Virus record (IMG/VR): IMGVR_UViG_3300030104_005320
Coordinates: 51,904 to 115,903 of that record
From: a virus
Direction: 5' to 3' (one strand)
Length of the DNA: 64,000 bases
Shown here: positions 8,424 through 55,539 of the stretch, in pieces
Layout of the letters: the number at the start of each line of letters is the position of its first letter
Numbering within the stretch: position 1 is the stretch's first letter
Notes under the pieces: generated by a model
What the model was told of the DNA's origin: nothing
The model's input: the letters and a program-made list of their open reading frames with translations, nothing else
Databases searched by the model: none
Program-made: the position numbers and the translations under genes

Positions 8424-8425
8424 CC

Positions 8426-8611: not shown

Positions 8612-8636
8612 GACTGAAGAAAGGAAACGTGATATT

Positions 8637-22094: not shown

Positions 22095-22105
22095 AGGAGA
22101 TAGCT

Positions 22106-24645: not shown

Positions 24646-26286
24646 ATGAGAAAAAAGAAAGTGCTATTTGTATCTGAGGCTTCGTGGAAAACAACCGGAT
24701 ATTCAGTATACACTAAAGAAGTATTGAGCAGGCTGAACCAAATAGACGAATTAGAAGTGGCTGAATTGTCCTGCTACGGATCTGCTTCCGATCCTGAAAT
24801 AAAAGATATACCTTGGAAAGTTTTTCCAAACAAGCCAGATGGAAACTCAGAAGAGTTTAAGATATACAAAAGTAATCCCAGCAATACATTTGGCGAATGG
24901 ACATTTAATAATGTTTGTCTAAAGTTTCAGCCAGATATTGTTATGGATATTCGTGACTGGTGGATGTTTGAATATCAACAAAGATCTCCGTTTAGAGATT
25001 TTTATCATTGGGCTATAATGCCGACAGTGGATGCGGCACCCCAAAATTCTCAGTGGGTAAACACATTTCAATCTGCTGACGCTGTATTCACTTATTCAGA
25101 ATTTGGTAGAGACGTTTTACAGGGGCAGTGCGATAATCTTAATTTTTGTGGAATAGCACCTCCCGCCGCTAGTAAAAACTTTATTCCATTTCTTAATAAA
25201 TCACAGCACAAGGAAACGATGGGATTAGACCCGGATTCCATAATTATTGGCACCGTGATGCGAAACCAGCGAAGAAAGTTATATCCGGATTTATTTAAAT
25301 CTTTTAGGATGTTGCTAGATGAAACAAAAAATGATAAACTCTTTCTGCATTGCCACAAATACTATCCAGACATTGGCTGGGACACTCCGAGTCTGTTAGA
25401 TGAATTCGGCCTTAACAACAGAGTTCTTTTTTCATACCAATGTAAAGAGTGTAAAAATTTACAGGTAGAATTCTTTCAGGATTCAGTTACCTACTGTAAA
25501 AAATGTAACAAGCTTACACAACAGCTAGTAGGTATAGAAAATCCTATAGACGAAGTAAATCTTAATAAAATATACAATACATTTGACATATATGTTCAAT
25601 ACGCGAATAGTGAAGGCTTTGGAATGCCTCAGTTAGAGGCCGCATATGCTGGACTGCCCGTAATATCTACTTATTATTCAGCCATGGAATCTGTTATAGA
25701 TAACATAGGAGGCATCGGAATTAAGCCTTTAGAGTATTCTAGGGAGGCTGAAACAGGCTGCTATAGGGCGATTCCAGACAATAGAAAGTTTGTAGACGTT
25801 CTTAAAAAGATGATAGACTCAAAACAAACATTACCAAAAATCGGGCAAAAAATAAATAAAACTGCCAGAAATCACTATAGCTGGGACAAAACCGCAGACA
25901 TATGGGCAGAGCATATAAAGTCAGTACCTATGAGAGATCTTAAAGAAACTTGGCTCTCTCCCGCAAACATAAAACAGCCAGCTTCATCTGTGCCGCAAAA
26001 TATTGTAGATTTAGCGGACAAGGTTGATTTTATATTTACAGACATACTACATAAACCAGAGTGGATAGGTGGATACCTATGGACTAAAGTTCTTAAAGAT
26101 TGTACGTTCAAGTATAGAGTACAAAGTTCTAATGAAGACTTTTACTTTAATGAATCTCATATCCAGTCTTACGATCAATTTTTACCCTTTAGCTTTGAGA
26201 AGGCGTGCGAAGAAATGGCAGCCTTCAGAAATCAACTTAATCAATGGGAGATGGCTAGAGTGCAGGCGATAGGGGGAAGTCAGTGA
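24646..26286 (+). CDS. GT4-like (GT-B) glycosyltransferase with zinc-ribbon insertion
   Basis: TGY, VMRNQRRK, EGFGMPQLEAAYAGLPVI; CKEC..CKKC insert. Confidence 0.88.
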   Translation: MRKKKVLFVSEASWKTTGYSVYTKEVLSRLNQIDELEVAELSCYGSASDPEIKDIPWKVFPNKPDGNSEEFKIYKSNPSNTFGEWTFNNVCLKFQPDIVMDIRDWWMFEYQQRSPFRDFYHWAIMPTVDAAPQNSQWVNTFQSADAVFTYSEFGRDVLQGQCDNLNFCGIAPPAASKNFIPFLNKSQHKETMGLDPDSIIIGTVMRNQRRKLYPDLFKSFRMLLDETKNDKLFLHCHKYYPDIGWDTPSLLDEFGLNNRVLFSYQCKECKNLQVEFFQDSVTYCKKCNKLTQQLVGIENPIDEVNLNKIYNTFDIYVQYANSEGFGMPQLEAAYAGLPVISTYYSAMESVIDNIGGIGIKPLEYSREAETGCYRAIPDNRKFVDVLKKMIDSKQTLPKIGQKINKTARNHYSWDKTADIWAEHIKSVPMRDLKETWLSPANIKQPASSVPQNIVDLADKVDFIFTDILHKPEWIGGYLWTKVLKDCTFKYRVQSSNEDFYFNESHIQSYDQFLPFSFEKACEEMAAFRNQLNQWEMARVQAIGGSQ

Positions 26287-27371
26287 AGGTATTATACATA
26301 GGAAATTACAAAGACGGGACAGGATGGGCCAATGCTTGTTGTGGAAACATATTAGCCATGGACGCTGCCGGTATAGAAGTTGTGCCAAGGGCTATAACTT
26401 TTGAAAAGCAAAGCAAGCCATATCCTAAAAGAATTAAAGAACTAGAAATTAAATACTCAAAGAAAAGCGACAACTACGATTGCGATGTTGTCGTACAACA
26501 CACACTACCGCATTTGTATTCTTACAATTCAAGATATAAAAACATTGGATTTTTTGATACTGAATCTTTCGATTTTGCTACAACCGGCTGGCAGCATTAT
26601 GCAAATATGATGGATGAGATCTGGGTTCCTAGTGAGCAAAATTTACAAGCCGCCAAAACCAGCGGTATAACTGTTCCGATAAAAATTATACCACACTCTA
26701 TAGATATGTCTGAGTATGAAAATACAGACGGTGCAAAAATTCAAGAGATGCAAAACAATTTTACTTTTGGGTTTGTTGGAGAGTTTATAGAGAGAAAAAA
26801 CTTGAAGGCATTAATCAAGGCTTTTCATATGGAATTTGACCCTAGAGAGCCTGTCAATCTTTTTATTAAAACTTCTAAATCGTCACTAGAGGATGTTCAA
26901 AAATTTTGTGGCCACATAAGAAGAGGGTTGAAACTTAGAAAAGAATACAAAGAAGAAATAGTAGTAGCCGGAATGCTAGAAAAGGTAGATTATGCTTCTG
27001 TGCTCAGTCAGGTTGATTGTTTTGTTATGCCTAGTCGTGGTGAAGCGTTTTGTATTCCCGCACTTGAAGCAATGGCACTTGGAATTCCCTCAATATACAC
27101 AGAATCAATTGGTATGGATTACTGTGTCGGAGAGGCTGTTCCCGCTAGAGTAGAGCCTTGTTTTGGAGCAATGCAGACTCTTCCAGACCTAGACACGGCA
27201 AGTAGCACATGGGCTGAGATAGATGTTCTGGAGCTATGCAAAGCAATGAGAAAGTGGTACAACAATAAAGATTTAAGTTCCTCAATTAAAGAAGAATGTA
27301 TTGAAACAGCCGCTGAGTATGACCACAAATATATTGGAATTGGCATAAAGGAGATTCTAAATGGCGGCTAG
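26283..27371 (+). CDS. GT4-like glycosyltransferase
   Basis: TGW, DEIWVPS, ERKN, PSRGEAFCIPALEAMALG. Confidence 0.9.
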   Translation: MKVLYIGNYKDGTGWANACCGNILAMDAAGIEVVPRAITFEKQSKPYPKRIKELEIKYSKKSDNYDCDVVVQHTLPHLYSYNSRYKNIGFFDTESFDFATTGWQHYANMMDEIWVPSEQNLQAAKTSGITVPIKIIPHSIDMSEYENTDGAKIQEMQNNFTFGFVGEFIERKNLKALIKAFHMEFDPREPVNLFIKTSKSSLEDVQKFCGHIRRGLKLRKEYKEEIVVAGMLEKVDYASVLSQVDCFVMPSRGEAFCIPALEAMALGIPSIYTESIGMDYCVGEAVPARVEPCFGAMQTLPDLDTASSTWAEIDVLELCKAMRKWYNNKDLSSSIKEECIETAAEYDHKYIGIGIKEILNGG

Positions 27372-28425
27372 TGCCACTGGTAGATCCGTTAGATCTATAA
27401 TGAGAAAAGTCAAAAGAGGGGACAAGCTTAATATATTAACTTTTCCCACGCATGAAAGGTACGAAGAAAACCTATGCAAAACAGGACATAATTTCTACGC
27501 TATAAACTATGGTAAAACGTGGGAGAGGCTATACGCGGATATTCCCGAAAACTACCATATCGTGAATGAAATACCAATAGATGTAGATTTTGATTTAGTT
27601 TTAAGTCACACTAGTTGTGAACGGATCAGGCTTGCAATCAACCTGCTGTCTGAAACAGACGATATAACTAAAATGAATGTTCCCATACTTAGGCATTGCC
27701 ACGTTTTGCCGAATCCCAAAATGCAAATTAGCCCAGAGATGCAGATGCAGCACTACAAAAGTGTTCCGGTGCAAAGGAACTCTTTTATATCTAGCTTCAA
27801 CAGAAAGCAATGGGGCTACGATGATGACGCTTCAATAATTGAACACGGAATGGATACTGATTTTTGGAAGCCCGACGATTCTGTGAAGCGTGAAAATTGG
27901 TGCTTATCTGTGGTTAATGACTGGCCTAATCGTGACTGGTGTTGCGGATTTGGGTTATGGTGTGCGACAGTCGGTCTAAATACTGAATACGAGATACCTA
28001 CAAGGGTTTATGGAAATAGTCCGGGATTTTCAGAAGCCGCCAAGGACACCAACCATCTAAGAGAGATATACCAATCTTCTAGCATCTTCTACAATACATC
28101 AATACATTCCCCCGTACCAACCGTTCTAATGGAGGCTATGGCTTGTGGTTGTGCTATTGTTTCTACCAACAACTGCATGATACCGGAGATAATTGAACAC
28201 GGCAAAAATGGACTACTGTCAAATGATCCTAATGAATTACGGCAGTTTCTTGAAATGCTTTTAAACAATCCAGAACTAGCTAGAAAGCTGGGAGATGAAG
28301 CAAGAAAAACTATTGTAGAAAAGTTTGGACTAGAAAGATTTATTGAAAATTGGAATGATCTTTTATATGACACTGTAGAAAATTATACATACACAACGGA
28401 GAGAGTTGATGAAAGCATATCTTAG
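27361..28425 (+). CDS. GT4-like glycosyltransferase
   Basis: IEHGMDTDFW, PTVLMEAMACGCAIVST, EIIEHGKNGLL. Confidence 0.88.
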   Translation: MAASATGRSVRSIMRKVKRGDKLNILTFPTHERYEENLCKTGHNFYAINYGKTWERLYADIPENYHIVNEIPIDVDFDLVLSHTSCERIRLAINLLSETDDITKMNVPILRHCHVLPNPKMQISPEMQMQHYKSVPVQRNSFISSFNRKQWGYDDDASIIEHGMDTDFWKPDDSVKRENWCLSVVNDWPNRDWCCGFGLWCATVGLNTEYEIPTRVYGNSPGFSEAAKDTNHLREIYQSSSIFYNTSIHSPVPTVLMEAMACGCAIVSTNNCMIPEIIEHGKNGLLSNDPNELRQFLEMLLNNPELARKLGDEARKTIVEKFGLERFIENWNDLLYDTVENYTYTTERVDESIS

Positions 28426-28831
28426 TTTCGTTCGCCCGGAAGACAATGCCTATAATTATTATAGAAACATAGGCAATTTTGCAAACGCAGTAATGGACAG
28501 CGAGGCAAATGAAATAGTCTGTAAAGATTTCCTGTCTTCCTTTTCTTACGATGAAGTGCCCGCTCTTATGGACCTGATTTTAAAGAAAATGAGGATCAAC
28601 TCCGAACTTACCATAGTTGAGCCTGATTTCTACCTTGCTTCAAAACATATATATAGAGGCGATATTCCTGTATCAGAGATTAATTCAAAACTTTTTGACT
28701 CTAATTCGTTAAAATCAATTTTAACCATTTCAGATATTGAATCTCTCATAACTCCATCTTTTCAAGTTGTTTCAAAACACTTAGATGAAAACAGTTGTAG
28801 ATTTGTTATAAAAGTTAGGAGATCTCAATGA
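28409..28831 (+). CDS. degenerate methyltransferase-like protein
   Basis: EIVCKDFLSSF...KKMRINSELTIVEPDF resembles the C-terminal half of a class I MTase but lacks a GxG motif. Confidence 0.4.
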   Translation: MKAYLSFVRPEDNAYNYYRNIGNFANAVMDSEANEIVCKDFLSSFSYDEVPALMDLILKKMRINSELTIVEPDFYLASKHIYRGDIPVSEINSKLFDSNSLKSILTISDIESLITPSFQVVSKHLDENSCRFVIKVRRSQ

Positions 28832-29628
28832 ACAAAGTAACAACAAAGTGTGAAGATTGTGTTTTCTCTAAGACAGAAAACGATAAACAAACCGGTTGCC
28901 AGCTAGGACGAGATGAGAAGTTGGGCGTGTCAGAGACGGCAGACGAGGGATATTTTATTCTAGAAAGATTTTGCAATACTTACCGGCCCGATCAATGGCT
29001 AGAAGATTTAAACTTTGAAGAGTCTATGGACACGAAGAAAACCGTGATGGACGAGATTGTTCCTAGAATTGGATTTTTTATACGTTTAGACACAGGAGAT
29101 GAAACTCCAACCAATAGTGAACTAAATCATACCCTTCAGTCAATATCACAAATAGAACACGGGCCTCCAGCTTTTGTCGCCGTCATCAACGACAAAGTAG
29201 AATTTAATGAACTTATATGGTCTTTATTCTTAAAATATTTCGAAAACTCCACTACAAAATATCACATTGTTCAACTAAAAAACAAACCAGAAACAGATAT
29301 GAAGCATTTGGATGAAGCCTTTTCTCATGCTCAAAACGGATGGCTGTATTCGACAACCAGCGGAGAGTCTGTGCCAAAAGATGTTGTCAGCAAACTACAT
29401 AAAAATATAAACATAGACATGAAACAATTAATGTTGGTTGAGCCATATGATAACTACAACGGCCTCATGTTCCCTACATTTGTTTTTAAATTTTTAAAAG
29501 GGAATAGGTCTAAAATTTTTCAAGACGAGATGATGGATAGCCGTCCATTTTTAGAAAAAATGAAAGCCGCTGAAAAACGAGGAAATACAAAAACTATTTT
29601 TAGCTGGGAGGAATTCAATGCTTCCTAA
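28828..29628 (+). CDS. hypothetical protein (Cys-rich N-terminus, possible degenerate GT-A)
   Basis: CEDCVF..GC..FC; position within the GT cluster. Confidence 0.55.
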   Translation: MNKVTTKCEDCVFSKTENDKQTGCQLGRDEKLGVSETADEGYFILERFCNTYRPDQWLEDLNFEESMDTKKTVMDEIVPRIGFFIRLDTGDETPTNSELNHTLQSISQIEHGPPAFVAVINDKVEFNELIWSLFLKYFENSTTKYHIVQLKNKPETDMKHLDEAFSHAQNGWLYSTTSGESVPKDVVSKLHKNINIDMKQLMLVEPYDNYNGLMFPTFVFKFLKGNRSKIFQDEMMDSRPFLEKMKAAEKRGNTKTIFSWEEFNAS

Positions 29629-30355
29629 AGTAGCTATTATTTGTGCTAATTACAACTATGGAAATTTTGTCATAGACGCAGTAAAGAGTATTGAAAATCA
29701 AACCTATAAAGGTCCAATAAGAATATATGTTGTAGATGACGGATCTTCGGACGACTCTTTGGAAAAACTGACATCATATTCTGAAGAAAAAAACGACAAG
29801 GATAAGTATCACTTTATTAGAATAAAAAACTCTGGAGCAAGTGTCGCAAGGAATACAGCCATAAATGCGGCTTGGCACTGGGCAGATATTTTTGGTATAT
29901 TAGACTCGGACGACGCATATTACCCTGAAAAGATAGAAAAGCTAGTAGCCAAACTTGTCGAACATAAAGAAGTAGGAGTGGCATACGCTGACTACAAAAA
30001 TGTATCTCCTGTTTTTTCTAAAAGAGAATTCAAAACCGCTTATGATAAAATAACCTTACTCCAAAGATGTATTGTTCACAGCAATTCGCTAATTAAAAAA
30101 GAATACTTAGAAAAAGTCAGACTACCAAACGGAGAGTTTTTTGACAGCAAGTTACACGGTCCAGCTAGCGAAGGGTTCATAGGATGCACAGAAGACTATG
30201 ATTTATGGCTTAGACTTTCTAATCATTGCATTATCACGCATGTTCCAGAATGTCTGGCTATAGCCAATCAACACGATAATAACCAGTCTAAAAAAATGAC
30301 TCCTGAAATATTCCAAAAAAACGCCCAAACCATAAGACAAAGAGCGGGTATTTAA
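29618..30355 (+). CDS. GT2 glycosyltransferase
   Basis: ANYNYG, VVDDGSSD, GASVARN, LDSDD, EDYDLWLR. Confidence 0.93.
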   Translation: MLPKVAIICANYNYGNFVIDAVKSIENQTYKGPIRIYVVDDGSSDDSLEKLTSYSEEKNDKDKYHFIRIKNSGASVARNTAINAAWHWADIFGILDSDDAYYPEKIEKLVAKLVEHKEVGVAYADYKNVSPVFSKREFKTAYDKITLLQRCIVHSNSLIKKEYLEKVRLPNGEFFDSKLHGPASEGFIGCTEDYDLWLRLSNHCIITHVPECLAIANQHDNNQSKKMTPEIFQKNAQTIRQRAGI

Positions 30356-31065
30356 TGGCCAGATTTGTAACTAAAATAACAAACAAAAAAACACCGACTT
30401 TTCTAAAGGGAGATCTGGCTGTTGCTATTCTTTCTGCCGGAAGTGGCAGCAGAATCAGATCTTACGAACCGAGAAGCCTACTTAAAATAGGAAACGAATC
30501 TCTAATTGATCATCAAATTAAAACGGTCAATCAATGTTTTGAAGACCCTGAAATAATTAGTGTTATTGGCTGTCACGCAAAAAAAATAATAAAAAAGACA
30601 AAAGGCAAAACACGTATAATAGAAAATCAACTACACGAAACTAGCAACTCTTCAGAGAGTTTGAGGCTAGCATTTAATAGCACGTTGAAAAAAAGTATGC
30701 TTTTCATGCATGGAGATCTTTATTTCAACGAAGGCACACTAAAAACGCTAGACTACAGTAAGTCGTTTATTATAATAGATACCAAAAATCAAATGAAAGA
30801 CAACGAAGTAGGTGTAACAATATCAGAGGGTAGTGCCGCAATAATGTCTTACGGCCTACCAACTAAATGGGCACAGATAGCCTTTTTGACAGGAAGAGAA
30901 TATAAAATATTAAAAAATATTTTTAACAAATATGAAACGCATGATAAAAAGAAATTGTCTTTTGAGATTATAAATATGATTATTAACATGGGTGGCAAGT
31001 TTTCGTGTCACGAACCGGAAAAAATGTCTATAGTCGAAATAGACAGAATAAAGGATATTAAATGA
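30355..31065 (+). CDS. NTP transferase (LicC/MobA-like nucleotidyltransferase)
   Basis: AILSAGSGSRI..PRSLL, NSSESL, MHGDL. Confidence 0.75.
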   Translation: MARFVTKITNKKTPTFLKGDLAVAILSAGSGSRIRSYEPRSLLKIGNESLIDHQIKTVNQCFEDPEIISVIGCHAKKIIKKTKGKTRIIENQLHETSNSSESLRLAFNSTLKKSMLFMHGDLYFNEGTLKTLDYSKSFIIIDTKNQMKDNEVGVTISEGSAAIMSYGLPTKWAQIAFLTGREYKILKNIFNKYETHDKKKLSFEIINMIINMGGKFSCHEPEKMSIVEIDRIKDIK

Positions 31066-32099
31066 AAATACTGATTTCTAGTGATGGCCTACATGCACAC
31101 TTTTACCAAAGGTCAGCTTGGATAAATGCTTTTGAAGCGTGCGGCATACAGACTTATTTTTGGGACTGCAAACAAGTTCCTGCATTCGATGTTTTCGACG
31201 CTTTCGAACCGGATTTGTTTTTAGGACAGTCTTACAACCTAACTCCCGATTTAATAAAGTGTATATACGAAAGACCGCATCTCAAAGTGGGCCTCCGTTC
31301 AGGAGACTGGGGAGATCAAGAAAAAGAAGTAGATAAAACCAAATACAATATACTATATTGCTCTGAACAAGAAAAGCAGATTTTAAAAAAGCTAAAAGAA
31401 GAGACTGGACAGCCAGAGTTTGTTCACATTCATTACAACGATGAAGAAATCCAAAGAACACACAATCATTTTGAAACTATAGGGATTAAGCCAGTGTCGA
31501 TTATGATGTGTGCGGACACGACGATATATAACGATGCGGAGCCACAAGAAGATCTGAGGTGCGACATAGGATTTGTTGGCGGGTATTGGCCATATAAAGG
31601 TCAAGTTATAAATGAATATCTTTTTCCTATGCTTGATTCATTTAAGTACAAGGTTAAAATATTTGGCAACAGTCCTTGGCCAGCAAACCAATACTGCGGA
31701 GTGATCGATGACGACCAATTAAAAGATTTATTTGTATCGGCTAAAATATGTCCAAATTTAAGTGAGCCACATGCACAAAAATTTGGTATTGATGTAAACG
31801 AAAGAATATTTAAAATACTCTGCTCTGGCGGATTCTGTATATCTGATTATGTTAAATCTTATGAGATGTTTGGAGACGGGGTTGTCCTAGCGAAAACTCC
31901 AGAAGATTTTAGAGATAAAATAAAATACTACCTAGAAAACCATAATGAGCGTGTTATTATTAGCAAAAGAGGGCAACAATACGTAAGACAAAACCACACA
32001 GGATTTCACAGAGTTTCTAAGCTTCTAAAATCCTTTGGATATGAAGATCTGTCTAATAACATTATTGAAAAATACAAGGAATTGATTAATGAGAACTAA
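31062..32099 (+). CDS. CgeB-like (Glyco_trans_1_2) glycosyltransferase
   Basis: DIGFVGG, SAKICPN, VNERIFKIL..GGFCISD, HT..HR. Confidence 0.8.
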   Translation: MKILISSDGLHAHFYQRSAWINAFEACGIQTYFWDCKQVPAFDVFDAFEPDLFLGQSYNLTPDLIKCIYERPHLKVGLRSGDWGDQEKEVDKTKYNILYCSEQEKQILKKLKEETGQPEFVHIHYNDEEIQRTHNHFETIGIKPVSIMMCADTTIYNDAEPQEDLRCDIGFVGGYWPYKGQVINEYLFPMLDSFKYKVKIFGNSPWPANQYCGVIDDDQLKDLFVSAKICPNLSEPHAQKFGIDVNERIFKILCSGGFCISDYVKSYEMFGDGVVLAKTPEDFRDKIKYYLENHNERVIISKRGQQYVRQNHTGFHRVSKLLKSFGYEDLSNNIIEKYKELINEN

Positions 32100-42120: not shown

Positions 42121-42137
42121 GTTCATTAAGTGGAATC

Positions 42138-44143: not shown

Positions 44144-44144
44144 T

Positions 44145-47653: not shown

Positions 47654-47656
47654 CAA

Positions 47657-48430: not shown

Positions 48431-49200
48431 TGACAGATGAATTGGACTTGTTTGATGCACAAAGCATCAAGGACGGAATAAAAAAAGAGGAAAACAAAAA
48501 GGAAGAAGAAACAACAATGCCCCCATACGGTTCCCAAGATTGGAACGAATATGTAATGGAGAAGTTTGATAACAAAGAGCTTTTTGATGGAAACCCGACG
48601 TGTGCGGGATTGCGTCGAGTGGCTGAAGATGTGCTAGGTACTATAGTTAGCAGTAGACCTATTCAAGTTTTTCCAGCATCAGACCCCAATGGGCCCGGAA
48701 GAGCCACTGTTGTATTTGAGATCGTTATTGATTGGATGGACTCTGGACAATACAGAACCTTTGGCGACGTGGCAGACGTATGGCATGGAAACACAGACGA
48801 TTTATTCTGTGCCCATCCCGTGGCTACGGCTAGCACTAGGGCAGAGGGTCGTGCTTTAAGAAAGGCTTTAAAGATTAAATGTCTAGCGGCAGAAGAACTA
48901 GCAAAAAAGGATGTTGCTTCTATCGTCAGACAGACAGTACAACAAAAGCCTACGGACGGAGAATGGAAAGAAGAGGACAATATTAGTTCCGCTCAAATCA
49001 ATTTTATTGGTGCCAAATGTGAGCAACTAGACATCAATGTTATGGATTTTATTAATTGTGGATCTGAATCTTATAAGACTATCGGAGAAGTTAGCAAGAA
49101 GACCGCATCTAAGATGTTGGGACTCTTGAATGAATACCAAACTAAAACTAAAGAAATGCCCGAAGATATAAAAGGGTATGAAAGCGATTGGAGAAAATAA
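48430..49200 (+). CDS. putative Rad52-like ssDNA-annealing protein
   Basis: ATVVFEI, ATASTRAEGRALRKAL, C-terminal ISSAQINFI. Confidence 0.55.
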   Translation: MTDELDLFDAQSIKDGIKKEENKKEEETTMPPYGSQDWNEYVMEKFDNKELFDGNPTCAGLRRVAEDVLGTIVSSRPIQVFPASDPNGPGRATVVFEIVIDWMDSGQYRTFGDVADVWHGNTDDLFCAHPVATASTRAEGRALRKALKIKCLAAEELAKKDVASIVRQTVQQKPTDGEWKEEDNISSAQINFIGAKCEQLDINVMDFINCGSESYKTIGEVSKKTASKMLGLLNEYQTKTKEMPEDIKGYESDWRK

Positions 49201-49529
49201 TGAAAGTAAAATATCAATCTGGAAAAATATCTGTAGAATTTGATTGCGACACACAGAAAGAGCTTTTTGCTCAGTTGGCATCTTTTCAAGAAGTATTTTG
49301 CGAAACAAAATGCGGCAAGTGTGGGTCAGAGAATTTAAAATTTGTCGTTCGTCAAGTTGACGGGAACGAATATCATGAAATTAGATGTTTGGACTGCGGT
49401 GCGAAGCTACAGTTTGGCGTAAACAAGAAGGGCGGTGCTCTTTTCCCAAAACGCAAAGATAGTGACGGAAACTGGCTACCAGACAAAGGCTGGACAAAAT
49501 GGAACCCAAAAACTAAGAAAGCGGAGTAA
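49200..49529 (+). CDS. zinc-ribbon protein
   Basis: CGKCGS...CLDCGA. Confidence 0.7.
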   Translation: MKVKYQSGKISVEFDCDTQKELFAQLASFQEVFCETKCGKCGSENLKFVVRQVDGNEYHEIRCLDCGAKLQFGVNKKGGALFPKRKDSDGNWLPDKGWTKWNPKTKKAE

Positions 49530-49804
49530 TGATTAAGCATAAAATTCTGGACGAACTAGGAACGGAAGATCAGTACATCATAGGTATAAGCTATATAAAA
49601 GATGGGAAAATAGAGACAACAATGATGTCTAACGATTTTCCGGTCTTAGATATGCCTACAGTAAGAAATGAATTTTCAGGATTGCTTTTTGAGCTTTATG
49701 ATAAGGAGGCTCCTAAGCCAGAAAACGTTGACATTGTAAACATAAACACCAACTCGTTAGACTCTCGTATCACAGACAAACAAGTTAAAGGCATAATTAA
49801 GTGA
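49529..49804 (+). CDS. hypothetical protein
   Basis: TAATG-coupled ORF. Confidence 0.6.
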   Translation: MIKHKILDELGTEDQYIIGISYIKDGKIETTMMSNDFPVLDMPTVRNEFSGLLFELYDKEAPKPENVDIVNINTNSLDSRITDKQVKGIIK

Positions 49805-50481
49805 AAATTTCATTTTGTATTACTTGTTATTATAGAGATGTGCATCTTTTACAGGATAGGATTGAGGAAATAGCAACGGGACAAACAGTCCTACCGGATG
49901 AGATAGTTGTTATTGCGAGCGGAATGCCGGATGGCTCTATGCGATGTCTAGATCCAAGAATAAAAATTTACACCTTTCCCGAAAGGATGCTTCCGGGCGG
50001 AGCTAGAAACAAAGGCGGTGAACTTTTTTCTGGAGATGTAGTATGTTTTTGCGACGTTGACGATCCAATACATCCACAAAAGTGTGAAATCGTAAAAAAA
50101 ATATTTAGCGAAAATCCAAACGTGGACGCTCTTGTTCACAATTTTAATTTCGACGAGGGAGATTTAGACGAAATATATGACACGAGCAACATCGAAATAG
50201 AGCGTATCTTAGAAGTAGATCCTAGATGGGAGAATGAACAAAAGCACATCTTTGAGCCACACAAAGACATACCTAGAACTTGTGTTATTGCCCCATCTAA
50301 AAAGCCGATACATCACGGACATTTAAGCGGCAGAGCAGAAATGTTTAAGACGTTAAAGTATCGTGAAGATATGTGGCTAGGGGAAGATGGAGATTTTTGT
50401 CAGTCTATAGTGAAGAGTGATTATAATTTATACTATACTCCGCTAATTTTAATAAACTATATAACAACAAAAGACAAATGA
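49801..50481 (+). CDS. GT2-like glycosyltransferase
   Basis: ISFCITCY, QTVLPDEIVV, GGARNKG, FCDVDD, GED. Confidence 0.85.
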   Translation: MKISFCITCYYRDVHLLQDRIEEIATGQTVLPDEIVVIASGMPDGSMRCLDPRIKIYTFPERMLPGGARNKGGELFSGDVVCFCDVDDPIHPQKCEIVKKIFSENPNVDALVHNFNFDEGDLDEIYDTSNIEIERILEVDPRWENEQKHIFEPHKDIPRTCVIAPSKKPIHHGHLSGRAEMFKTLKYREDMWLGEDGDFCQSIVKSDYNLYYTPLILINYITTKDK

Positions 50482-50885
50482 ATGTTGAAGTTTCTAACGG
50501 CGAAATTGCCGACAAAGTTTCTATATTAATGATCAAGGCACAAAAGATACACGATCCCGATAAGATGAAAAACATAGCTGAAGAGCTTGAAGCCTTATCG
50601 GTTGCCTTTGGTCAGATAGTAGGACATCCTTCGGATGTATTCAAAAAAGATGGAATTTGGGAATTGTTTTTTTCTTTGAAAAACATAAACGAAAAACTCT
50701 GGAACATAGAAGACAAGATAAGGGAAAAAGAAAAGAACAAACAGTTTGATGCAGAGTTTATAGAGTTGGCTAGATCGGTATATATGACCAATGATAAAAG
50801 ATCTAAAATAAAAGCAGAGATAAACAAGACTTCACACTCAAGACTATTAGAAGAAAAGTCCTACAGCGACTATCTAAGCCAATAA
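50478..50885 (+). CDS. DUF6165-like protein
   Basis: VSNGEIADKVSIL.IK...INEKLWNIED.IR...FIELARSVY.TNDKR..IK..IN. Confidence 0.75.
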   Translation: MNVEVSNGEIADKVSILMIKAQKIHDPDKMKNIAEELEALSVAFGQIVGHPSDVFKKDGIWELFFSLKNINEKLWNIEDKIREKEKNKQFDAEFIELARSVYMTNDKRSKIKAEINKTSHSRLLEEKSYSDYLSQ

Positions 50886-51700
50886 TTATTTTTTACGCGA
50901 TGATTGCAGTCTTGAGATTTTACTCTAGACCAGCCAGAATCGTAAGAATCATTTAGATAGCCTTCTCCAGTCATAATTAAATCTCTTTCTGCCCAGTAGA
51001 ACTTAGGAACGTCTACTTTACACATTCTGATTAGGTGCATCCAAGATGTATCTACAGTGTGTATTTCAGAAGCGTTTTTGATGACCTTAATCCAGTCAAA
51101 AATAAGGGTATCTTTCCATGGGTAGTTTGCTGGATCTATGACAGGAAGGTCCGTAGGGGGGCTAAAATCGAAGCTGTACTTACGGCTGTCCCTTACTACG
51201 AAAGCGTATTTATTGGGCAGCTTTAGACTTTCAAAAAGATCGTTTTCTTTTTTTATATCTCTTGGTAAAAAGTAGCTTTTATATCTTTCTTCATACGGAA
51301 CCTGTTGGACAGAATAAAAAACTTTAGGCCATATTGTAGATTCTGGTAGATTTAATTTTTTAGCCTGCTCCAGCCATTGACTTTCTTTATTAAAGTAACA
51401 CCTTCTTAGTGGAGGTATATCAACGCCGGGGTTATCCTGCCTAATTTTTTTGTAAGCACTTTCTTGCCTGAGCCTTGCCTGTCTGGTGCTACTGGGGTGC
51501 GGCTTTACAAACGGAATAATTTTATCATTATCCCTATACATAAATTCAATATGCTTTAATCTAGAGTCCCAACAAACTACATAAACCCTGTCATATATCG
51601 ATGCAAAATATCTGATAGAGCCATTCATGACAATAGAATCGCCCAAGCCTGTATTGTTAGCTACTACTATCCATTTTTTCTTTAATGTCTGTCCAGCCAT
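50870..51700 (-). CDS. uncharacterised GT-B-like protein (GLGD family paralogue)
   Basis: NTGLGDSIVMNG, FMYRD, IFDW, ASEIHTVDTSW; start uncertain (51700 or 51715). Confidence 0.6.
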   Translation of the reverse strand: MAGQTLKKKWIVVANNTGLGDSIVMNGSIRYFASIYDRVYVVCWDSRLKHIEFMYRDNDKIIPFVKPHPSSTRQARLRQESAYKKIRQDNPGVDIPPLRRCYFNKESQWLEQAKKLNLPESTIWPKVFYSVQQVPYEERYKSYFLPRDIKKENDLFESLKLPNKYAFVVRDSRKYSFDFSPPTDLPVIDPANYPWKDTLIFDWIKVIKNASEIHTVDTSWMHLIRMCKVDVPKFYWAERDLIMTGEGYLNDSYDSGWSRVKSQDCNHRVKNNYWLR

Positions 51701-52442
51701 TATCATATCCATCATTAAGGTAATTTTCTCCACACGCGGGAACCGGTCTTGCATATCTATGAAAAAATCTAGGATTATCTAGCTTCATAGATTTTATTAA
51801 ATGAAACCAAGAAGTATCAACCGTGTGTATTTCTGTAGCGTTTTCTATAACAGACATCCAATCAAAAACCAAAGTCTTCAAGGGAAATGAGTCAGGGCTA
51901 ACAATCGGAAGTTTAGTGTTAAGATAAATTCTAGATTGTTTCTTAGCTCTTTTGCTCGCTACAAAAGCGTACTCCTTGGGCAATCCAAGACGTTTATACA
52001 GCTCTCTCTCACGATGCGGATCTCTTTTAAAGTAAAAACTTTCATGTCTTTGTTTGTAGTCTACGCCAACAGCTTTGTAAAAAGCTTCACACCAGCAGCT
52101 TTTTTCCACATCTAACCCTATTCTTTCTACCAGATCGGGCCAGTCACGCATGTATGGCCAGAAAAACATCCTTGCATCAAAACCCTCTTTCTCATATCTG
52201 GCTCTAATTTTTCTAATTTTCCTTTGTGCGTGCTTGCCACTGGCGGCATCTGTCTCGGCCACTATATGTATTCTTGGATCGTCTCTATACATATACTTTA
52301 CATGTTCTACTTTTTGCCCATAGGTCACGACATAAACTTGATCATAGGAATTTAACAGATATCTAGCAGCACCATTCATCATAATATGGTCTCCTAGCCC
52401 CGTGTTATGTGCAATAATGCATCTGTCTAAAACTAACTTCAT
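51657..52442 (-). CDS. uncharacterised GT-B-like protein (GLGD family paralogue)
   Basis: HNTGLGDHIMMNG, YMYRD, VFDW, ATEIHTVDTSW. Confidence 0.6.
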   Translation of the reverse strand: MKLVLDRCIIAHNTGLGDHIMMNGAARYLLNSYDQVYVVTYGQKVEHVKYMYRDDPRIHIVAETDAASGKHAQRKIRKIRARYEKEGFDARMFFWPYMRDWPDLVERIGLDVEKSCWCEAFYKAVGVDYKQRHESFYFKRDPHRERELYKRLGLPKEYAFVASKRAKKQSRIYLNTKLPIVSPDSFPLKTLVFDWMSVIENATEIHTVDTSWFHLIKSMKLDNPRFFHRYARPVPACGENYLNDGYDNGWTDIKEKMDSSS

Positions 52443-52443
52443 T

Positions 52444-54033
52444 TCAATAATCCGTATTATGGGAACAAGGAGGATTTACTTGGCCTACGTGTTCATTGTT
52501 TTTTCTAAGAGTTGGAAAATCTAACTGGATTGCACCATCTATTTTTTCATTATTTTTTATACGAGATGTTATTTCAGGATTTCTTTTTTCATAATCTCCA
52601 TATAAGATACCGTTCTCGTGGCCAACATGAGATAAAGACTCGTCCTTGTAAATCGGCCATATGAATTCAGTCAACCATTTTTGGTCAACTCCCTTGCGAT
52701 CCTCCTTGTTAAAGCTGGCTATCATTTCTACTACATTTGGAATACCGCCCTTTATGCCCCACATACCCCCAAGGATTGGTATGTCGTGCCAATAGTGGTC
52801 TCTCATGCAGTGTAAAGATTTTTTAGATTGTAGCCACTCGTTAACAGCATGAACTTCTCTCCATAAGATTACTGAATCAGCGTCCCTAAATATTACAATA
52901 TTTGAGTCTTTAGCGGCATAAAATCGCCAAAACATAGAAAGGTTATTTTCTGGTTCTCCTTTCATATATATTAAATTACAACCCATTTCTTCTAAAGAAT
53001 CGCATACATGCCTTGGAACAGAATCCCCTATGTAAAAACGCCACTCCCAATCTGGATATTTATCCCTGCCATATTTGACGCATCTAACGGCACCGTCTGT
53101 GTATAAGGTATCTGATCCATACAAGCTAAATGATATTATCTTGTTATTGCTTTTGTTGATTTTTTTATTTATTATTGTTGAAAGTGTTGGGAAAAACTGC
53201 AACTCATTTAGAATTTTTTTCTTAGCGGCCTTTATGTATGGCAACCTTCTTTCCCACTCGTTGTTTTTTATCGCAGATTTAATTAAGGACAAAGAGTGCT
53301 GCTTGTCATGAACCGTAATTGGTATATATGCTCTAGGATCTATAAACTCGTACAGATTAGGACAGCCCCAGTAAAAGCATAAACATTCAGACAATATTGC
53401 GTCTACTATCTTTTCTGTGAAATAATTTTTTTCAGCAGTATTTTCAGCAGAGTATGTGTACTTATATGGGAATAAACCTTGATCTTTTGTTCTCCATGGA
53501 AGTGGCCCCATTTCTTTACCGGCTGATGGCCAGTGCTCAGGAATCCAAACATTTGCATGACCCCTTCCCCAGACATCCATTTCTATATTTTCACATATAT
53601 GGCAAAGAAGCTCTAGTCTCTGATTATGTCCGGGCAGCCATCTCTCGCCAGACATTACTGTAGAAAGTTTTTTGGTTTTTTTAAGGCTTACTTTTCCCTG
53701 TGTGAGATCAGAGTAGGTTGGAGATATCCACCACTCAACGGGATTTTTATAATGATAAAATAATATCTTGTCTCTATGTGCCTCGACATTTGAAAAAATG
53801 CCGGGAAATTGAGATATGCTATATTTCGGCTCCATCTGTATAACTATAGTTCTTTTGGGTTCTATGTTTTCTTTATCCCAATCTACCCAATTAATAACCA
53901 CAGAGAAATCTTCGTCCTCATCTACTAGCTGTATATCTTTCCAGCCCCCTTTTTCATCGGCCATTTTTTTAAAGTACCCATTAAGATAAGGCTCCTCCTT
54001 GTAATAATTGCCAACTATTTTTACTCTATACAT
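52444..54033 (-). CDS. GT10 alpha-1,3/4-fucosyltransferase-like domain fused to ISFSLYG/MRDH GT-like domain
   Basis: QMEP, YKYTYSAEN....YFTEKIVDA......YWG (GT10 motif); then ISFSLYG, FWRF, RDADS, MRDHYWH, ILGGMWG. Confidence 0.8.
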   Translation of the reverse strand: MYRVKIVGNYYKEEPYLNGYFKKMADEKGGWKDIQLVDEDEDFSVVINWVDWDKENIEPKRTIVIQMEPKYSISQFPGIFSNVEAHRDKILFYHYKNPVEWWISPTYSDLTQGKVSLKKTKKLSTVMSGERWLPGHNQRLELLCHICENIEMDVWGRGHANVWIPEHWPSAGKEMGPLPWRTKDQGLFPYKYTYSAENTAEKNYFTEKIVDAILSECLCFYWGCPNLYEFIDPRAYIPITVHDKQHSLSLIKSAIKNNEWERRLPYIKAAKKKILNELQFFPTLSTIINKKINKSNNKIISFSLYGSDTLYTDGAVRCVKYGRDKYPDWEWRFYIGDSVPRHVCDSLEEMGCNLIYMKGEPENNLSMFWRFYAAKDSNIVIFRDADSVILWREVHAVNEWLQSKKSLHCMRDHYWHDIPILGGMWGIKGGIPNVVEMIASFNKEDRKGVDQKWLTEFIWPIYKDESLSHVGHENGILYGDYEKRNPEITSRIKNNEKIDGAIQLDFPTLRKNNEHVGQVNPPCSHNTDY

Positions 54034-55428
54034 TTATGTTTTAACCCTATTTATAACATAAGATTTATTTTCAATCCTTTCAACAAGTGTATAGTTTAAA
54101 TTTTTCAGGCCATCAGTACTGAAATCATATCGAGAGTGTAACTTTTCTACATTCAAACTGTGAGATTTTTTTGAAGCTTTATCATGATGCATAGACGCAA
54201 ATCTTCCATCTCTTCTTTTCCATGAGATACCTAATGAATCAATTCTTTTTTTCATGTCGTCATCTTCTGCTCCCCATCCCCAATACTCATTTGAGTAACC
54301 ATTTAAAAGATTAAAATGAAACTTATCAAAAAGTGTGACGCCTCCAAATATACCAGCATACGGAAGCTTATAATTAAATTGAGAACAAAACGCAGAAAGG
54401 TGTGTTGGCGTACACGGAAAAGAGTAGTCACAAGACCTGCCTTCTGGAATCAAATCTATATCATGGAAACAAAAATAACAATTCTTATGTTTGTTTAAAT
54501 CGTAACCTATATTCAAAAGCTTGGCACGATTAAATTCATGGTCGTCGTATTGCTCTATAATTTGTATTTCATATTTGATATCCGGATGATAAAAATTCAT
54601 ATGGTCAGAAATACCAGAAACAAAGGACTCGACTTGATGCTCCCTGTTTCTGTAGGGAACAACTACACACATGTTATTAAACTCTTCAGTAGAAAAGTCT
54701 GAAACAAAATATTTAGACTCTGCTATATCTTGTTTTAAATATTTTATGTCAAAAAAATTATAATGATTCTGAACTTCAGGGTTAACGTGCGTGCCCCACG
54801 TTCCAAGATGAGTAGTCCTGCTAACTTCAGGCTGTAGCCATTTCATTCCATGCCATATTATGTGTGCTCTTATTGCAAAATCCCAACCCTTAGTTTTTAA
54901 ATGGTGGTCTTTCCTGTACCAATTAAATTTTAGCTGATCAAACCATCCTCTTTTGTCAAGTATAAATCCTAGTGCCGACCAGTTATATGTATCGACAACA
55001 AATTCTTGAGACTCTTTTTTAGAGTATTCACTAAAAGAATCATAGTTAAAGAGAGAAATTCCCGCATAACCCTTGTAAGAATCTCTATCTAAAGTCATAT
55101 ACCAATCTGCTATCTTAGTAATGTCTGGAGAAACCACTAGGTCTTCTTCTAGATATATATTAACATCAGAAAGCAGGACTTCATAAACATATGAAAGCAA
55201 CTTAAATGGATGGTTTTTAACTCCTTCTTTTTCTTTGGGCACAATAATCTTGTATTGTAGTCCATCCAATATTTTATTTATTGAAGATATCATATCTTCT
55301 AGCAAAGGAGTAGGCTCAACAGATAGTATTATATCCCAACCGTCAAGATCGTTTTTGACCAGAGAAGAAAGTAAATTCTCTAATAACTTTTTTCTGTTGT
55401 GAACAGTTACAGTTATTGTTTTTTTCAT
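54034..55428 (-). CDS. bifunctional glycosyltransferase: GT13/GnT-I-like domain plus GT7 beta-1,4-galactosyltransferase-like domain
   Basis: N-domain HNR, YLEEDLVVSPD, GWD, PEVSRTTHLG; C-domain VVVPYRNR, FNRAKLLNIG, FHDIDL, FGGV, NGYSNEYWGWGAEDDD. Confidence 0.8.
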   Translation of the reverse strand: MKKTITVTVHNRKKLLENLLSSLVKNDLDGWDIILSVEPTPLLEDMISSINKILDGLQYKIIVPKEKEGVKNHPFKLLSYVYEVLLSDVNIYLEEDLVVSPDITKIADWYMTLDRDSYKGYAGISLFNYDSFSEYSKKESQEFVVDTYNWSALGFILDKRGWFDQLKFNWYRKDHHLKTKGWDFAIRAHIIWHGMKWLQPEVSRTTHLGTWGTHVNPEVQNHYNFFDIKYLKQDIAESKYFVSDFSTEEFNNMCVVVPYRNREHQVESFVSGISDHMNFYHPDIKYEIQIIEQYDDHEFNRAKLLNIGYDLNKHKNCYFCFHDIDLIPEGRSCDYSFPCTPTHLSAFCSQFNYKLPYAGIFGGVTLFDKFHFNLLNGYSNEYWGWGAEDDDMKKRIDSLGISWKRRDGRFASMHHDKASKKSHSLNVEKLHSRYDFSTDGLKNLNYTLVERIENKSYVINRVKT

Positions 55429-55539
55429 CTAAAAAATATCTCAATAGATTGCTGTAGTGATAATAAGCGGAGTCAACCATAATATTATCGACAAAATCAA
55501 CAATCACAACAACAAATTAACAATAATATTGTTAATAAT

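Follow-up and report, generated by a model that had tools for sequence, protein, structure and literature searches.

A phage-encoded glycan biosynthesis island between the replication and tail genes of an uncultured marine phage

The island described here is almost certainly a genuine phage-encoded glycan factory, and its glycan would, with a rough probability of 45%, be made in the cytoplasm on the phage's own virion proteins. The window is the 64,000-nucleotide stretch at positions 51,904 to 115,903 of IMG/VR record IMGVR_UViG_3300030104_005320, a contig which is about 75% complete. In the ORF map, positions 24646-55428 hold about 45 genes with almost no gaps (Table 1), flanked upstream by a split DnaE and an SSB-like gene and downstream by tail genes including the tape measure. 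The plus strand carries the ORFs from 24646 to 50885 and the minus strand those from 55428 to 50870, nearly all abutting or overlapping. The strands meet convergently at 50870-50885 with a 16-bp overlap. Promoter and terminator scans gave signal at or below chance.

Because a conserved module (47192-49529) splits the island, it consists of two glycan blocks and not one. This backbone module is found in every relative examined, minimal ones included, its Atlas clusters contain viruses only, and it probably has no glycan role. The last gene of the tail operon (55540-56508) has homologues in 20 of the 24 relatives searched, again with Atlas clusters of viruses only. Its product is without Pfam or PHROG match and may be a component of the distal tail or of a fibre. 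On the tail-gene strand, the last conserved tail gene is followed directly, at the 3' end, by four GT genes.

Table 1. Features of the island and its surroundings (window positions; single numbers are gene starts)
Position	Strand	Feature	Evidence
4767-6335	+	GlmS, outside island	NCBIfam glmS 292-300 bits
7415-7771	+	Small GNAT, outside island	Pfam GNAT
24646-26286	+	First island gene, 546-aa GT4-type GT-B glycosyltransferase	Pfam Glycos_transf_1
26283-27371, 27361-28425	+	Two GT4 glycosyltransferases, conserved core	Pfam; homologues in 60-68 of 77 further loci
28406-29628	+	141-aa protein and 266-aa protein with Cys-rich N-terminus, conserved core	30-54% identity in relatives; no Pfam or PHROG match
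29618-30355	+	GT2	Pfam
30355-31065	+	NTP_transf_3 sugar-phosphate nucleotidyltransferase	Pfam; NCBIfam GlmU/Arch_glmU-like N-terminal domain
31062-32099	+	CgeB-like GT (Glyco_trans_1_2)	Pfam E 2e-20
32089-33057	+	GDP-L-fucose synthase-like SDR (Fcl/GMER-like)	Pfam Epimerase E 3e-57
33032-33871	+	GT2	Pfam
33868-34488	+	FkbM methyltransferase	Pfam
34472-35230	+	GT2, ends block common to most relatives	Pfam; synteny
35227-35949	+	Paralogue of C-terminal half of GT10 protein	BLASTP 38% identity, E 2e-20
35950-36393	+	phrog_34507 match	PHROG
36390-37515	+	Split HldE-like pair, separate genes: kinase (rfaE domain I-like) and nucleotidyltransferase (rfaE domain II-like)	Pfam PfkB, CTP_transf_like
37512 (block 37512-39693)	+	Cupin, PMI-like	Pfam/NCBIfam
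37871	+	GT9-like paralogue	Paralogy
38496	+	KdsC/KDN-9-P phosphatase-like HAD	Pfam/NCBIfam
38977	+	Second PfkB-like protein, weak	Pfam/NCBIfam
39680-40840	+	Sugar-1-P nucleotidyltransferase and RpiB/LacAB sugar-phosphate isomerase fusion	Pfam LacAB_rpiB E 5e-31
40830-41402, 42117-42746	+	Two Sulfotransfer_2 sulfotransferases	Pfam E 3e-23, 1e-23
41308, 42730, 43397 (block 40830-44143)	+	Three ORFs without family, between and after the sulfotransferases	No Pfam or PHROG match, no homologue in fetched relatives
44145-44966	+	WavE-like protein	Pfam 28.7 bits, above gathering score
44944-45819	+	CgeB-like GT (Glyco_trans_1_2)	Pfam 29.1 bits, above gathering score
45816-47195	+	Beta-phosphoglucomutase-like HAD and sugar-1-P nucleotidyltransferase fusion	Pfam HAD_2 E 2e-26, NTP_transferase E 2e-9; NCBIfam
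47192-49529	+	Conserved module of four genes; DUF559/HNH-endonuclease-like protein at 47657-48430	Pfam, PHROG
49529 (block 49529-50885)	+	91-aa protein without family	ORF
49801-50481	+	GT2	Pfam
50478-50885	+	DUF6165 protein, end of plus-strand run	Pfam
50870-51754, 51657-52442	-	Pair of GT-B paralogues, nearest to GT9 heptosyltransferases	Paralogy, AF2, Foldseek
52444-54033	-	GT10 fucosyltransferase-like domain and C-terminal domain without assigned function	Pfam 26.6 bits, above gathering score
54034-55428	-	Two-domain GT: weak MGAT2-like GT-A N-terminal half and animal-type GT7 (beta4Gal/GalNAc-transferase-like)	Pfam Glyco_transf_7C E 1e-22, 7N E 2e-16
55540-56508	-	322-aa protein, last tail-operon gene, right-hand limit of variable interval	

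Uncultured marine phages with genomes of about 150-160 kb form the large group to which this phage belongs. A tape-measure gene marks them as tailed, and they have a DnaE replicase and a tmRNA of the alphaproteobacterial type. No cultured phage has a TerL or DnaE more than about 35% identical to those encoded here, and the backbone is not T4-like. Gene order in the first 11 kb or so of the island is kept in about 100 related IMG/VR loci (27 + 77) at 40-77% identity, similar to that of the replication genes. A core of soluble GTs right behind dnaE-ssb is shared across the lineage. The stretch separating it from the tail operon is a hot spot which gains and loses sugar cassettes. The interval from the first GT gene to the conserved tail-operon gene ranges from 8.3 to 31 kb among relatives, and these carry other cassettes (DegT, formyltransferase, UDP-glucose dehydrogenase, GT47, GT32, and PIG-L). 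In the present phage it has expanded to about 31 kb, the largest version among those seen.

Sixteen GT domains are supported, 13 by Pfam matches at or above the gathering score and three, the GT9-like paralogues, by predicted fold. The sequence-only reading had counted 18-20 GT-like genes or domains; about three beyond the 16 are unverified candidates. The first island gene is a hallmark of the lineage, with 3346 representative homologues and at least 567 IMG/VR (viral) stretches. It encodes a Cys4 ribbon (C266/C269/C284/C287) and a helical extension at the C-terminus. The top PDB match of its AF2 model (pLDDT 94.6) is B736L of chlorovirus NY-2A (3oy2, E 6e-21, TMt 0.80), and the small-molecule GT4s MshA, BshA, sucrose-phosphate synthase, and GlgM are among its close structural relatives.

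Both of the uncharacterised paralogous families noticed earlier are real. One, made up of 35227 and the C-terminal half of the GT10 protein, carries no functional assignment. The other (37871, 50870(-), and 51657(-), the last two 38% identical by BLASTP) is predicted to have a GT-B fold nearest to GT9 heptosyltransferases (AF2 pLDDT 90.8), with WaaF, a GT9 structure, WaaC, and TibC as best Foldseek matches. Its VIA Z is 11.5-12.0, only 1-2 Z away from other GT-B families, and these fold matches fail to tell the protein heptosyltransferase TibC from the LPS enzymes WaaC/WaaF. Among PDB structures, the GT10 protein matches H. pylori FucT (E 3e-7) and the GT7 protein beta4GalT1 (E 5e-32); the N-terminal half of the latter scores 23 bits as MGAT2-like, below the cut-off of 27.

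Several sugar-activating enzymes accompany the GTs. The Fcl-like SDR has GDPFucSynFcl as its top NCBIfam match (288 bits, under the 500-bit equivalog cut-off), and its partner Gmd is found at 4522-5643(-) of the contig. Next to Gmd, near terL, lie a third sulfotransferase and a gene of the fatty-acid hydroxylase family. The split HldE-like pair reaches 118 and 116 NCBIfam bits, each under the equivalog cut-off. GlmS and the GNAT are satellite supply genes (4767-7771) interleaved with nrdB. The 39680-40840 fusion, for which no close cellular relative was found, has an N-terminus that is a paralogue of the NTP-transferase half in the 45816-47195 fusion; the latter fusion has a 69% identical homologue in the relative G025. 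The two sulfotransferases are 53% identical to each other.

Most of this inventory had been recognised before: the GDP-fucose synthase, the split HldE-like kinase and nucleotidyltransferase, three more NTP transferases, the KdsC-like HAD, the cupin, PfkB, and two sulfotransferases all have family matches, with the Fcl-like enzyme below its equivalog cut-off and the second PfkB weak. A GDPD-like gene was not found, and of the 2-3 methyltransferases proposed only FkbM is confirmed. The system had also been called near-autonomous. This is true of Gmd/Fcl-like, GlmS/GNAT, and heptose-type activation, which the phage encodes, but an APS kinase for PAPS was searched for and not found, and hexose phosphates must be supplied by the host.

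The GTs had been described as apparently soluble, and the island encodes no multi-TM protein; its sole membrane-type signal is one borderline hydrophobic segment at 43397-44143. ORFs with more than four hydrophobic segments are absent from the contig, and those with more than two from a complete 158.5-kb DTR relative. The absence of an exporter, a polymerase, and a polyprenol-phosphate initiating transferase now extends to that complete genome: the contig, 553 kb of relatives' loci, and the complete relative have no initiating transferase (PF00953 and PF02397, positive controls included), flippase, polymerase, or other polytopic membrane protein. Bacterial O-antigen and capsule loci of the Wzx/Wzy- or ABC-dependent kind share the activation and transfer families and the cassette-like diversity. 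What sets them apart is an apparatus for initiation (a phosphoglycosyl transferase), export (a flippase or ABC exporter), polymerisation (a polymerase), and chain-length regulation, no part of which is found here.

Judging from the enzyme families, the phage would make a GDP-fucose-type 6-deoxyhexose by Gmd and the Fcl-like enzyme, a heptose-type NDP-sugar by the split HldE-like pair and the HAD phosphatase, a hexosamine by GlmS and GNAT, and further NDP-sugars by the three nucleotidyltransferases. At least 16 cytoplasmic GTs would build a branched hetero-glycan, which may then be O-methylated and sulfated. Capsid, tail, or fibre proteins may be the acceptor, glycosylated in the cytoplasm before lysis. 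An earlier proposal had the phage building glycans on its own proteins or DNA; the glycan system is real, the protein acceptor tentative, and DNA unlikely. GT7, GT10, and Sulfotransfer_2 families are best known from glycoprotein and proteoglycan synthesis and are counted for virion proteins. Weighing against them, LPS-core and O-antigen synthesis classically relies on heptose activation and on GT2, GT4, GT9-like, and WavE-like enzymes. The four GT genes behind the last conserved tail gene, on its strand, support a virion acceptor, as do the Gmd and Fcl pair, which matches the chlorovirus GMD/GMER pair (PMC4691112), and the chlorovirus GT as best match of the first island gene.

It is somewhat less probable that the island remodels the host envelope. 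On the cytoplasmic side of the membrane, the phage GTs would then extend or replace the host's undecaprenyl-linked intermediates for O-antigen, capsule, or LPS core, and export would be left to the initiating transferase, flippase, and ligase of the host. The altered surface would block superinfection or stop progeny loss on debris. Soluble or peripheral GT2/GT4/GT9-type enzymes also act on undecaprenyl- or lipid-linked acceptors at the inner membrane face, so the host carrier, flippase, and ligase could serve GTs without TM segments. LPS-type families are present (HldE-like, KdsC-like, WavE, GT9-like, GT2, and GT4), and the alpha-type tmRNA suggests a Gram-negative host. T4-like cyanophages carry LPS gene clusters which are hypervariable, like the pelagimyophage host-recognition cluster. 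Hypervariable cassettes beside tail genes mirror host O-antigen diversity, and for the similar gene sets of pelagimyophages and cyanomyophages the published reading favours host O-chain modification (PMC7029224). The pelagimyophage cluster resembles this island in its large non-syntenic GT/rfaE-type blocks beside tail-fibre genes in uncultured marine phages, with a putative function in each (PMC7029224). The conserved glycan core of 7-12 genes behind the replisome is, in contrast, not reported for pelagimyophages or cyanophages, and the DnaE-replicase backbone is not T4-like. Across hundreds of contigs the core shows the conservation of an essential phage module, unlike an accessory moron; GtrA/B/C-like proteins, Wzx, Wzy, WaaL, and an initiating transferase are absent from about 100 loci and the complete genome; and the route would require host flippases and ligases that tolerate a wide variety of foreign glycans. 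The position of the four GT genes after the tail genes and the low identity (22-31%) of the GT9-like family to its cellular homologues also argue against host remodelling.

In an improbable alternative, the enzymes would make some other product that stays in the cytoplasm or is released: a glycolipid, a small molecule carrying sugars, or a free oligo- or polysaccharide, which would leave the cell at lysis or serve as a metabolic sink. The small-molecule GT4s close to the first island GT and the two genes beside Gmd would fit, but the benefit to the phage is not obvious, and strain-variable cassettes point to a surface under diversifying selection.

Still more improbable is DNA hypermodification, in which the GTs would put sugars on modified bases to evade restriction. 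The island is contiguous with the replication genes, starting directly behind dnaE-ssb, a dNMP kinase is encoded, and there is a precedent in phage GT clusters that add mono- to trisaccharides, heptose included, to 5hmC (bioRxiv 10.1101/2023.12.21.572611). However, neither a ThyA-type hydroxymethylase nor a C5-methyltransferase is found in the three genomes G000, G001, and G002, where controls worked; only ThyX is present. A Tet/JBP search gave no match, and its positive control was silent too. At least 16 GTs with sulfo- and methyltransferases are far beyond any known sugar modification of DNA. It is very unlikely that the island is an assembly chimera or an intact bacterial LPS/capsule locus captured recently. 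No evidence for either was found, G+C is uniform between the island (0.35-0.39) and the replication genes (0.36-0.40), and flanks, core, the 45816 homologue, the 47192-49529 module, and 55540 are in the same order as in relatives. The identical GT7 protein occurs on 24 contigs, the GT9-like protein occurs on 5 of up to 132 kb, and cellular homologues are distant, with no close relatives found.

Glycosylation of virion proteins has parallels elsewhere. Giant viruses (capsid glycans of chloroviruses PBCV-1/NY-2A, fibril clusters of Mimivirus) likewise encode nucleotide-sugar pathways including GMD and GMER/Fcl, and many soluble GTs and methyltransferases in strain-variable clusters without an ER/Golgi or export step (PMC4691112, PMC9614988). 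Here, in contrast, we infer the particle glycan from the genes of a tailed phage whose bacterial host is probably an alphaproteobacterium; GT families overlap partly, and sulfotransferases and heptose-type activation are additional. To our knowledge, glycosylation of phage virions has been demonstrated only for mycobacteriophages. According to the account of Freeman et al. 2023 cited in PMC12619734, their phage-encoded GTs glycosylate capsid and tail-tube proteins in the cytoplasm, with few GTs and host sugar nucleotides. This lineage differs in its GTs (at least 16), its own sugar activation, sulfation, methylation, and a 4-fold range of locus size between relatives. In the Bacillus spore crust (CgeB, Sps proteins), soluble GTs decorate a particle assembled in another cell's cytoplasm without a flippase. 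The analogy is functional only, the sole common element being the CgeB-like domain (PF13524). A core module kept in a lytic-type backbone suggests a function which the phage needs for its own use, and the outcome would be a sugar coat specific to the strain, to which these three systems offer parallels.

The glycan island is real and ancestral in this phage lineage. G+C content is even from the replication genes through the island, and 27 IMG/VR loci that share DnaE-C at 60-74% identity keep one gene order: SSB, the 546-aa glycosyltransferase (GT) that opens the island, GT4, GT4, a 141-aa protein, a 266-aa protein, GT2, a nucleotidyltransferase, CgeB-like, Fcl-like, GT2, and FkbM, with identities of 40-77%. 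At least 567 viral stretches match a profile of the first GT, which has the same neighbourhood in 77 newly fetched loci (of 80 kept). It is neither a chimeric assembly nor a captured bacterial locus, judging by the even G+C, the synteny in relatives, the distance of the cellular homologues of the GT9-like family, and the occurrence of an identical GT7 protein in 24 contigs on record.

Positions of the features discussed (window coordinates unless a contig or locus is named)
Feature	Position	Strand	Details
GlmS and GNAT	4767-7771		satellite, outside the island
Split DnaE	20276-24335		pieces of 530 aa and 527 aa, exonuclease-subunit-like gene between
Island, first part	24646 to 50885	+	ORFs overlap or abut, few gaps
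Island, second part	55428 down to 50870	-	ORFs overlap or abut, few gaps
Fcl-like enzyme	32089-33057		partner of Gmd
Cassette block	35.2-47.2 kb		heptose-type activation, sulfotransferases, WavE-like, CgeB-like, nucleotidyltransferase fusions
GT9-like paralogue	37871	+	
Four-gene module	47192-49529		includes a DUF559/HNH-endonuclease-like protein
Cassette block	49.5-55.4 kb		GT2, DUF6165, two GT9-like genes, GT10, MGAT2-like/GT7
GT2	49801-50481		
GT9-like paralogues	50870; 51657	-	
GT7 protein	54034-55428	-	
Palindrome	55517-55535		perfect 9-1-9, TTAACAATAATATTGTTAA; in the 111 bp that separate the GT7 gene from the last tail gene
Proteins of virus-only clusters	48430-49200; 55540-56508		ESM Atlas: hypothetical clusters, nothing else
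Proteins with no PHROGs or Pfam match	28406; 28828; 35227; 41308; 42730; 43397; 47192; 48430		
terL-side sugar cluster	source contig 2798-8926 (L038)	-	ClpP, ERCC4 nuclease, Gmd, methyltransferase, fatty-acid-hydroxylase-family protein, third Sulfotransfer_2, sigma-70 region-2 protein
Gmd	source contig 4522-5643		PF16363, E 6e-110
Third Sulfotransfer_2 and methyltransferase	adjoining Gmd		satellite
Permuted tmRNA	source contig 39620-39947 (L039 19620-19947)		RF01849 73 bits, RF04321 89 bits
Additional GT4	source contig 47762-48805		satellite
DnaE region of G012 (complete relative)	100871-105557		ORFs of 894, 295 and 373 aa
GT2 within dnaE split of relatives	L020 8674-9318; L027 7221-7877; L007 7991-8641; L001 5328-5972		flanked by DnaE-N gene and exonuclease-like gene

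The source contig is 115.9 kb long, the window being its final 64 kb, and has an estimated completeness of ~75% (CheckV). Relatives with complete or nearly complete genomes measure 145-159 kb, and one of them has direct terminal repeats. On the 5' side of the island are nrdA, glmS, nrdB, GNAT, thyX, phoH, a UvsX-like recombinase, and a DnaB-like helicase, together with primase, dNMP kinase, exonuclease, the split DnaE, and an SSB-like gene. The tail genes lie on the 3' side on the minus strand, the last being a tape-measure protein truncated at the contig end; PHROGs and Pfam give nothing for the tail proteins. The remainder of the contig carries terL, clpP, RIIA, three tRNAs, and a permuted alphaproteobacterial-type tmRNA. 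This tmRNA, which encodes the tag peptide AEPCLALAA and matches the alphaproteobacterial model, is the sole host clue found. A split DnaE (PHROG 405) serves as replicase, and the backbone, in which UvsX-like and RIIA-like genes are present, is not T4-like (Tevenvirinae-type). Note that the DnaE split differs among relatives. In protein searches DnaE and TerL are at most ~35% identical to those of any cultured phage, and the first GT matches cultured phages only distantly, also at no more than ~35% identity. A 24-kb query had no Megablast nucleotide match among 50,697 phage records, and literature searches found no description of this lineage.

Thirteen GT domains in the island reach the Pfam gathering score; the families are GT4 (three), GT2 (four), CgeB-like (two), WavE-like, GT10, and GT7 (one each). 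Counting predicted folds as well, the total is 16 GT domains, none with a transmembrane segment in the hydropathy scan. Among solved structures, the first GT is closest to the GDP-mannose-binding enzyme B736L of chlorovirus NY-2A (TMt 0.80, E 6e-21). A representative library holds 3346 homologues of this GT, of which 547 reach E <= 1e-30. Many are doubled or tripled in tandem (~870-1330 aa; P0123, P0125, P0128, P0246, and others), some of the doubled forms being ~900 aa long, so other viruses have duplicated and fused the Cys4-ribbon GT4 module. For the GT10 domain the match is Helicobacter FucT (E 3e-7), and for the GT7 domain it is animal beta-1,4-galactosyltransferase 1 (E 5e-32). The N-terminal half of the GT7 protein has an MGAT2-like match below the Pfam threshold, and the fusion used as a query among viral contigs returned no related loci. 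Hundreds of ~478-aa marine-metagenome homologues join GT7 to a Laminin_G_3/ConA-like lectin domain (P0026-P0120); some carry a Toxin_R_bind_N or sialidase-lectin domain, and some are on 55-79-kb contigs. These may be a phage GT-lectin family in their own right. Within the dnaE split of several relatives sits a GT2 at 36-39% identity to that of the second cassette block, which shows that GT genes move around the backbone.

Two uncharacterised paralogous families had been noted from the sequence alone, and both are real. The first, with three members, has no match in Pfam or in a PDB profile search, and only its predicted fold is informative: a GT-B fold (pLDDT 90.8) whose best structural matches are the heptosyltransferases WaaF, WaaC, and TibC. 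These come top at Foldseek E 6e-5 to 1e-3 and VIA Z 11.5-12.0, and the family is assigned to GT9, tentatively because other GT-B families (GT1 enzymes, UDP-GlcNAc 2-epimerases) come within 1-2 Z. Its cellular homologues are only 22-31% identical and scattered across many phyla. An identical GT9-like protein is encoded by a 132-kb contig. The second family consists of the protein at 35227 and the C-terminal half of the GT10 protein, and has no function assigned.

Sugar activation is represented by a GDP-L-fucose synthase-like SDR, a KdsC/KDN-9-P phosphatase-like HAD, a cupin, NTP_transf_3, and a split HldE-like pair in which the rfaE domain I-like and rfaE domain II-like parts are separate ORFs. 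There are also two nucleotidyltransferase fusions, NTP-transferase-RpiB and beta-PGM-like HAD-NTP-transferase; the former, used as a query among genome contigs, gave no related loci. Tailoring genes are an FkbM methyltransferase and two Sulfotransfer_2 genes, 53% identical to each other. A search for APS kinase returned just a sub-threshold P-loop match, inside the UvsX-like recombinase gene. The activation and tailoring genes listed in the sequence-only reading were thus largely recovered, except for a GDPD-like gene and second and third methyltransferases. Other sugar genes lie outside the island, some in a second small cluster beside terL. Judged by their sequences, Gmd and the Fcl-like enzyme would together complete the route from GDP-mannose to GDP-fucose.

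The locus varies greatly in length. From the first GT to the conserved 322-aa last gene of the tail operon it spans 8.3-31 kb in the 20 relatives measured, and ~15, 24, and 31 kb in a further three, estimated from locus coordinates; the window interval, 30.9 kb, lies at the upper end of this span. The smallest versions have about seven glycan genes, then a homologue of the four-gene module, then the converging tail gene. Since this module is found in every relative examined, it is probably backbone and not related to the glycan. In the present phage, extra cassettes have been added on both sides of it. In relatives the same slots hold DegT aminotransferases, formyltransferases, dehydratases, UDP-glucose dehydrogenase, GT47, GT32, PIG-L, and GNAT, and G025, a relative of equal length, has only the landmarks in common with the window. 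The cassettes of another relative, G002 (L035/L036), also include an aldehyde dehydrogenase, a class-I aldolase, a class-III aminotransferase, and an ornithine cyclodeaminase-like gene, which may be part of an unusual route to amino or acidic sugars. The palindrome at 55517-55535 might serve as an operator or as a weak terminator. As a shared operator it was dropped, being single-copy in the window and absent from the first 20 kb of the contig (L038). Scans for promoters and terminators between 44 and 58 kb gave no more than expected by chance.

Membrane machinery was sought with a simple Kyte-Doolittle hydropathy scan, not a trained predictor. No island protein exceeds one borderline hydrophobic segment, and the contig maximum is four, in one 141-aa ORF. 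Nothing exceeds four segments in 553 kb of relatives' loci, three in 1598 further ORFs, or two in the complete 158.5-kb G012. Six-frame HMM searches of the source contig (G000), G001, and G002 found no initiating transferase of the WecA/MraY type (PF00953) or WbaP/PglC type (PF02397); among 14 positive-control genomes the two were found in 12 and 9, respectively. These negatives imply that the lineage is without a lipid-carrier initiation, flipping, polymerisation, or ligation step. A small protein of G002 with three transmembrane segments was considered as a GtrA-like flippase and dropped, as it has no Pfam match and no counterpart in other relatives.

Virion proteins are the favoured acceptor of the glycan, with a probability of about 0.45. 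This reading draws on the conservation of the core, which resembles that of an essential phage module, on the absence of membrane machinery, and on the position of the last four GT genes, which are on the tail-gene strand directly past the last conserved tail gene. Moreover, the chlorovirus pattern recurs here: Gmd with Fcl, a large set of soluble GTs, and a methyltransferase. The spore crust of Bacillus is decorated from within the mother cell, and the CgeB-like GT of the island recalls this. Put more fully, and held more tentatively still, the proposal is that a widespread, uncultured marine tailed-phage lineage builds a giant-virus-like, strain-variable particle coat that is fucosylated, heptosylated, methylated, and sulfated. 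All of its enzymes would be cytoplasmic and phage-encoded, including animal-type GT7, GT10, and carbohydrate sulfotransferase families, and the locus would be an 8 to 31 kb diversity hot spot like bacterial O-antigen loci but on a virus.

Glycosylation of the host envelope through host carriers is rather unlikely as the function of the island. The HldE-, KdsC-, WavE-, and GT9-type families are LPS tools, and soluble enzymes are compatible with lipid-linked acceptors. In pelagimyophages, similar gene sets have been interpreted as modifying the O-chain of the host (PMC7029224). Other soluble or lipid products are improbable. Least probable of these is phage DNA: the place of the island behind the replisome and the dNMP kinase would fit, but ThyA-type hydroxymethylase (PF00303) and C5-methyltransferase (PF00145) had no match in G000, G001, and G002 (67-88% complete; controls matched in 10 and 9 of 14 genomes), the Tet/JBP family PF12851 matched no control so that its silence is uninformative, and the enzymes are far more numerous than known DNA glycans, which reach trisaccharides (10.1101/2023.12.21.572611), would suggest.

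Among known systems, the autonomous glycosylation of giant viruses, in which the glycan is covalently attached to capsid or fibril proteins, would be a working resemblance. Nucleotide-sugar synthesis is virus-encoded in both (Gmd and Fcl-like here, GMD and GMER there), and both have multiple soluble GTs, here predicted to act with no host secretory or export pathway. Virion glycosylation in mycobacteriophages would be another. The LPS/host-recognition cluster of marine myophages is similar in placement, a GT-rich hypervariable block adjoining tail or fibre genes, but has a T4-like backbone. Bacterial O-antigen and capsule loci (Wzx/Wzy or ABC) likewise cluster nucleotide-sugar enzymes with GTs, whereas their defining initiating transferase and polytopic flippase, polymerase, ligase, or ABC permease are not found here. 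GtrABC/Oac-type seroconversion, defined by a membrane GtrA flippase, a GtrB bactoprenol glucosyltransferase, and a polytopic serotype-specific GtrC, or by an Oac acyltransferase, does not fit either, as the hydropathy scan shows no polytopic proteins. Phage DNA-sugar clusters (T-even gt; MT/5mYOX-GT) make a hydroxymethyl-pyrimidine acceptor with a ThyA-type dCMP/dUMP hydroxymethylase, or with a C5-methyltransferase and a TET/5mYOX enzyme; the three genomes searched had no match to the hydroxymethylase or the C5-methyltransferase. What sets the lineage apart is a non-T4 backbone whose replisome is followed by a conserved core, together with a hot spot expandable four-fold; the present member adds animal-type GT7, GT10, sulfotransferases, and heptose-type activation.

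Whichever acceptor is used, the island is a catalogue of soluble non-membrane enzymes (GT7, GT10, GT9-like, and sulfotransferases) and of unusual fusions that join a nucleotidyltransferase to RpiB or to a beta-PGM-like HAD. If the host envelope is the target, a lytic-type phage rewrites the cell surface while encoding no membrane machinery itself. If instead the particle carries the glycan, giant-virus-scale virion glycosylation would be a normal trait of an abundant group of uncultured ocean phages, at least 567 IMG/VR stretches being found for the first GT alone. A coat of this kind would matter for the stickiness and decay of particles, for the recognition of hosts, and for escape from defence or grazing. 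With its swappable cassettes, the conserved core would be a viral counterpart of O-antigen diversity.
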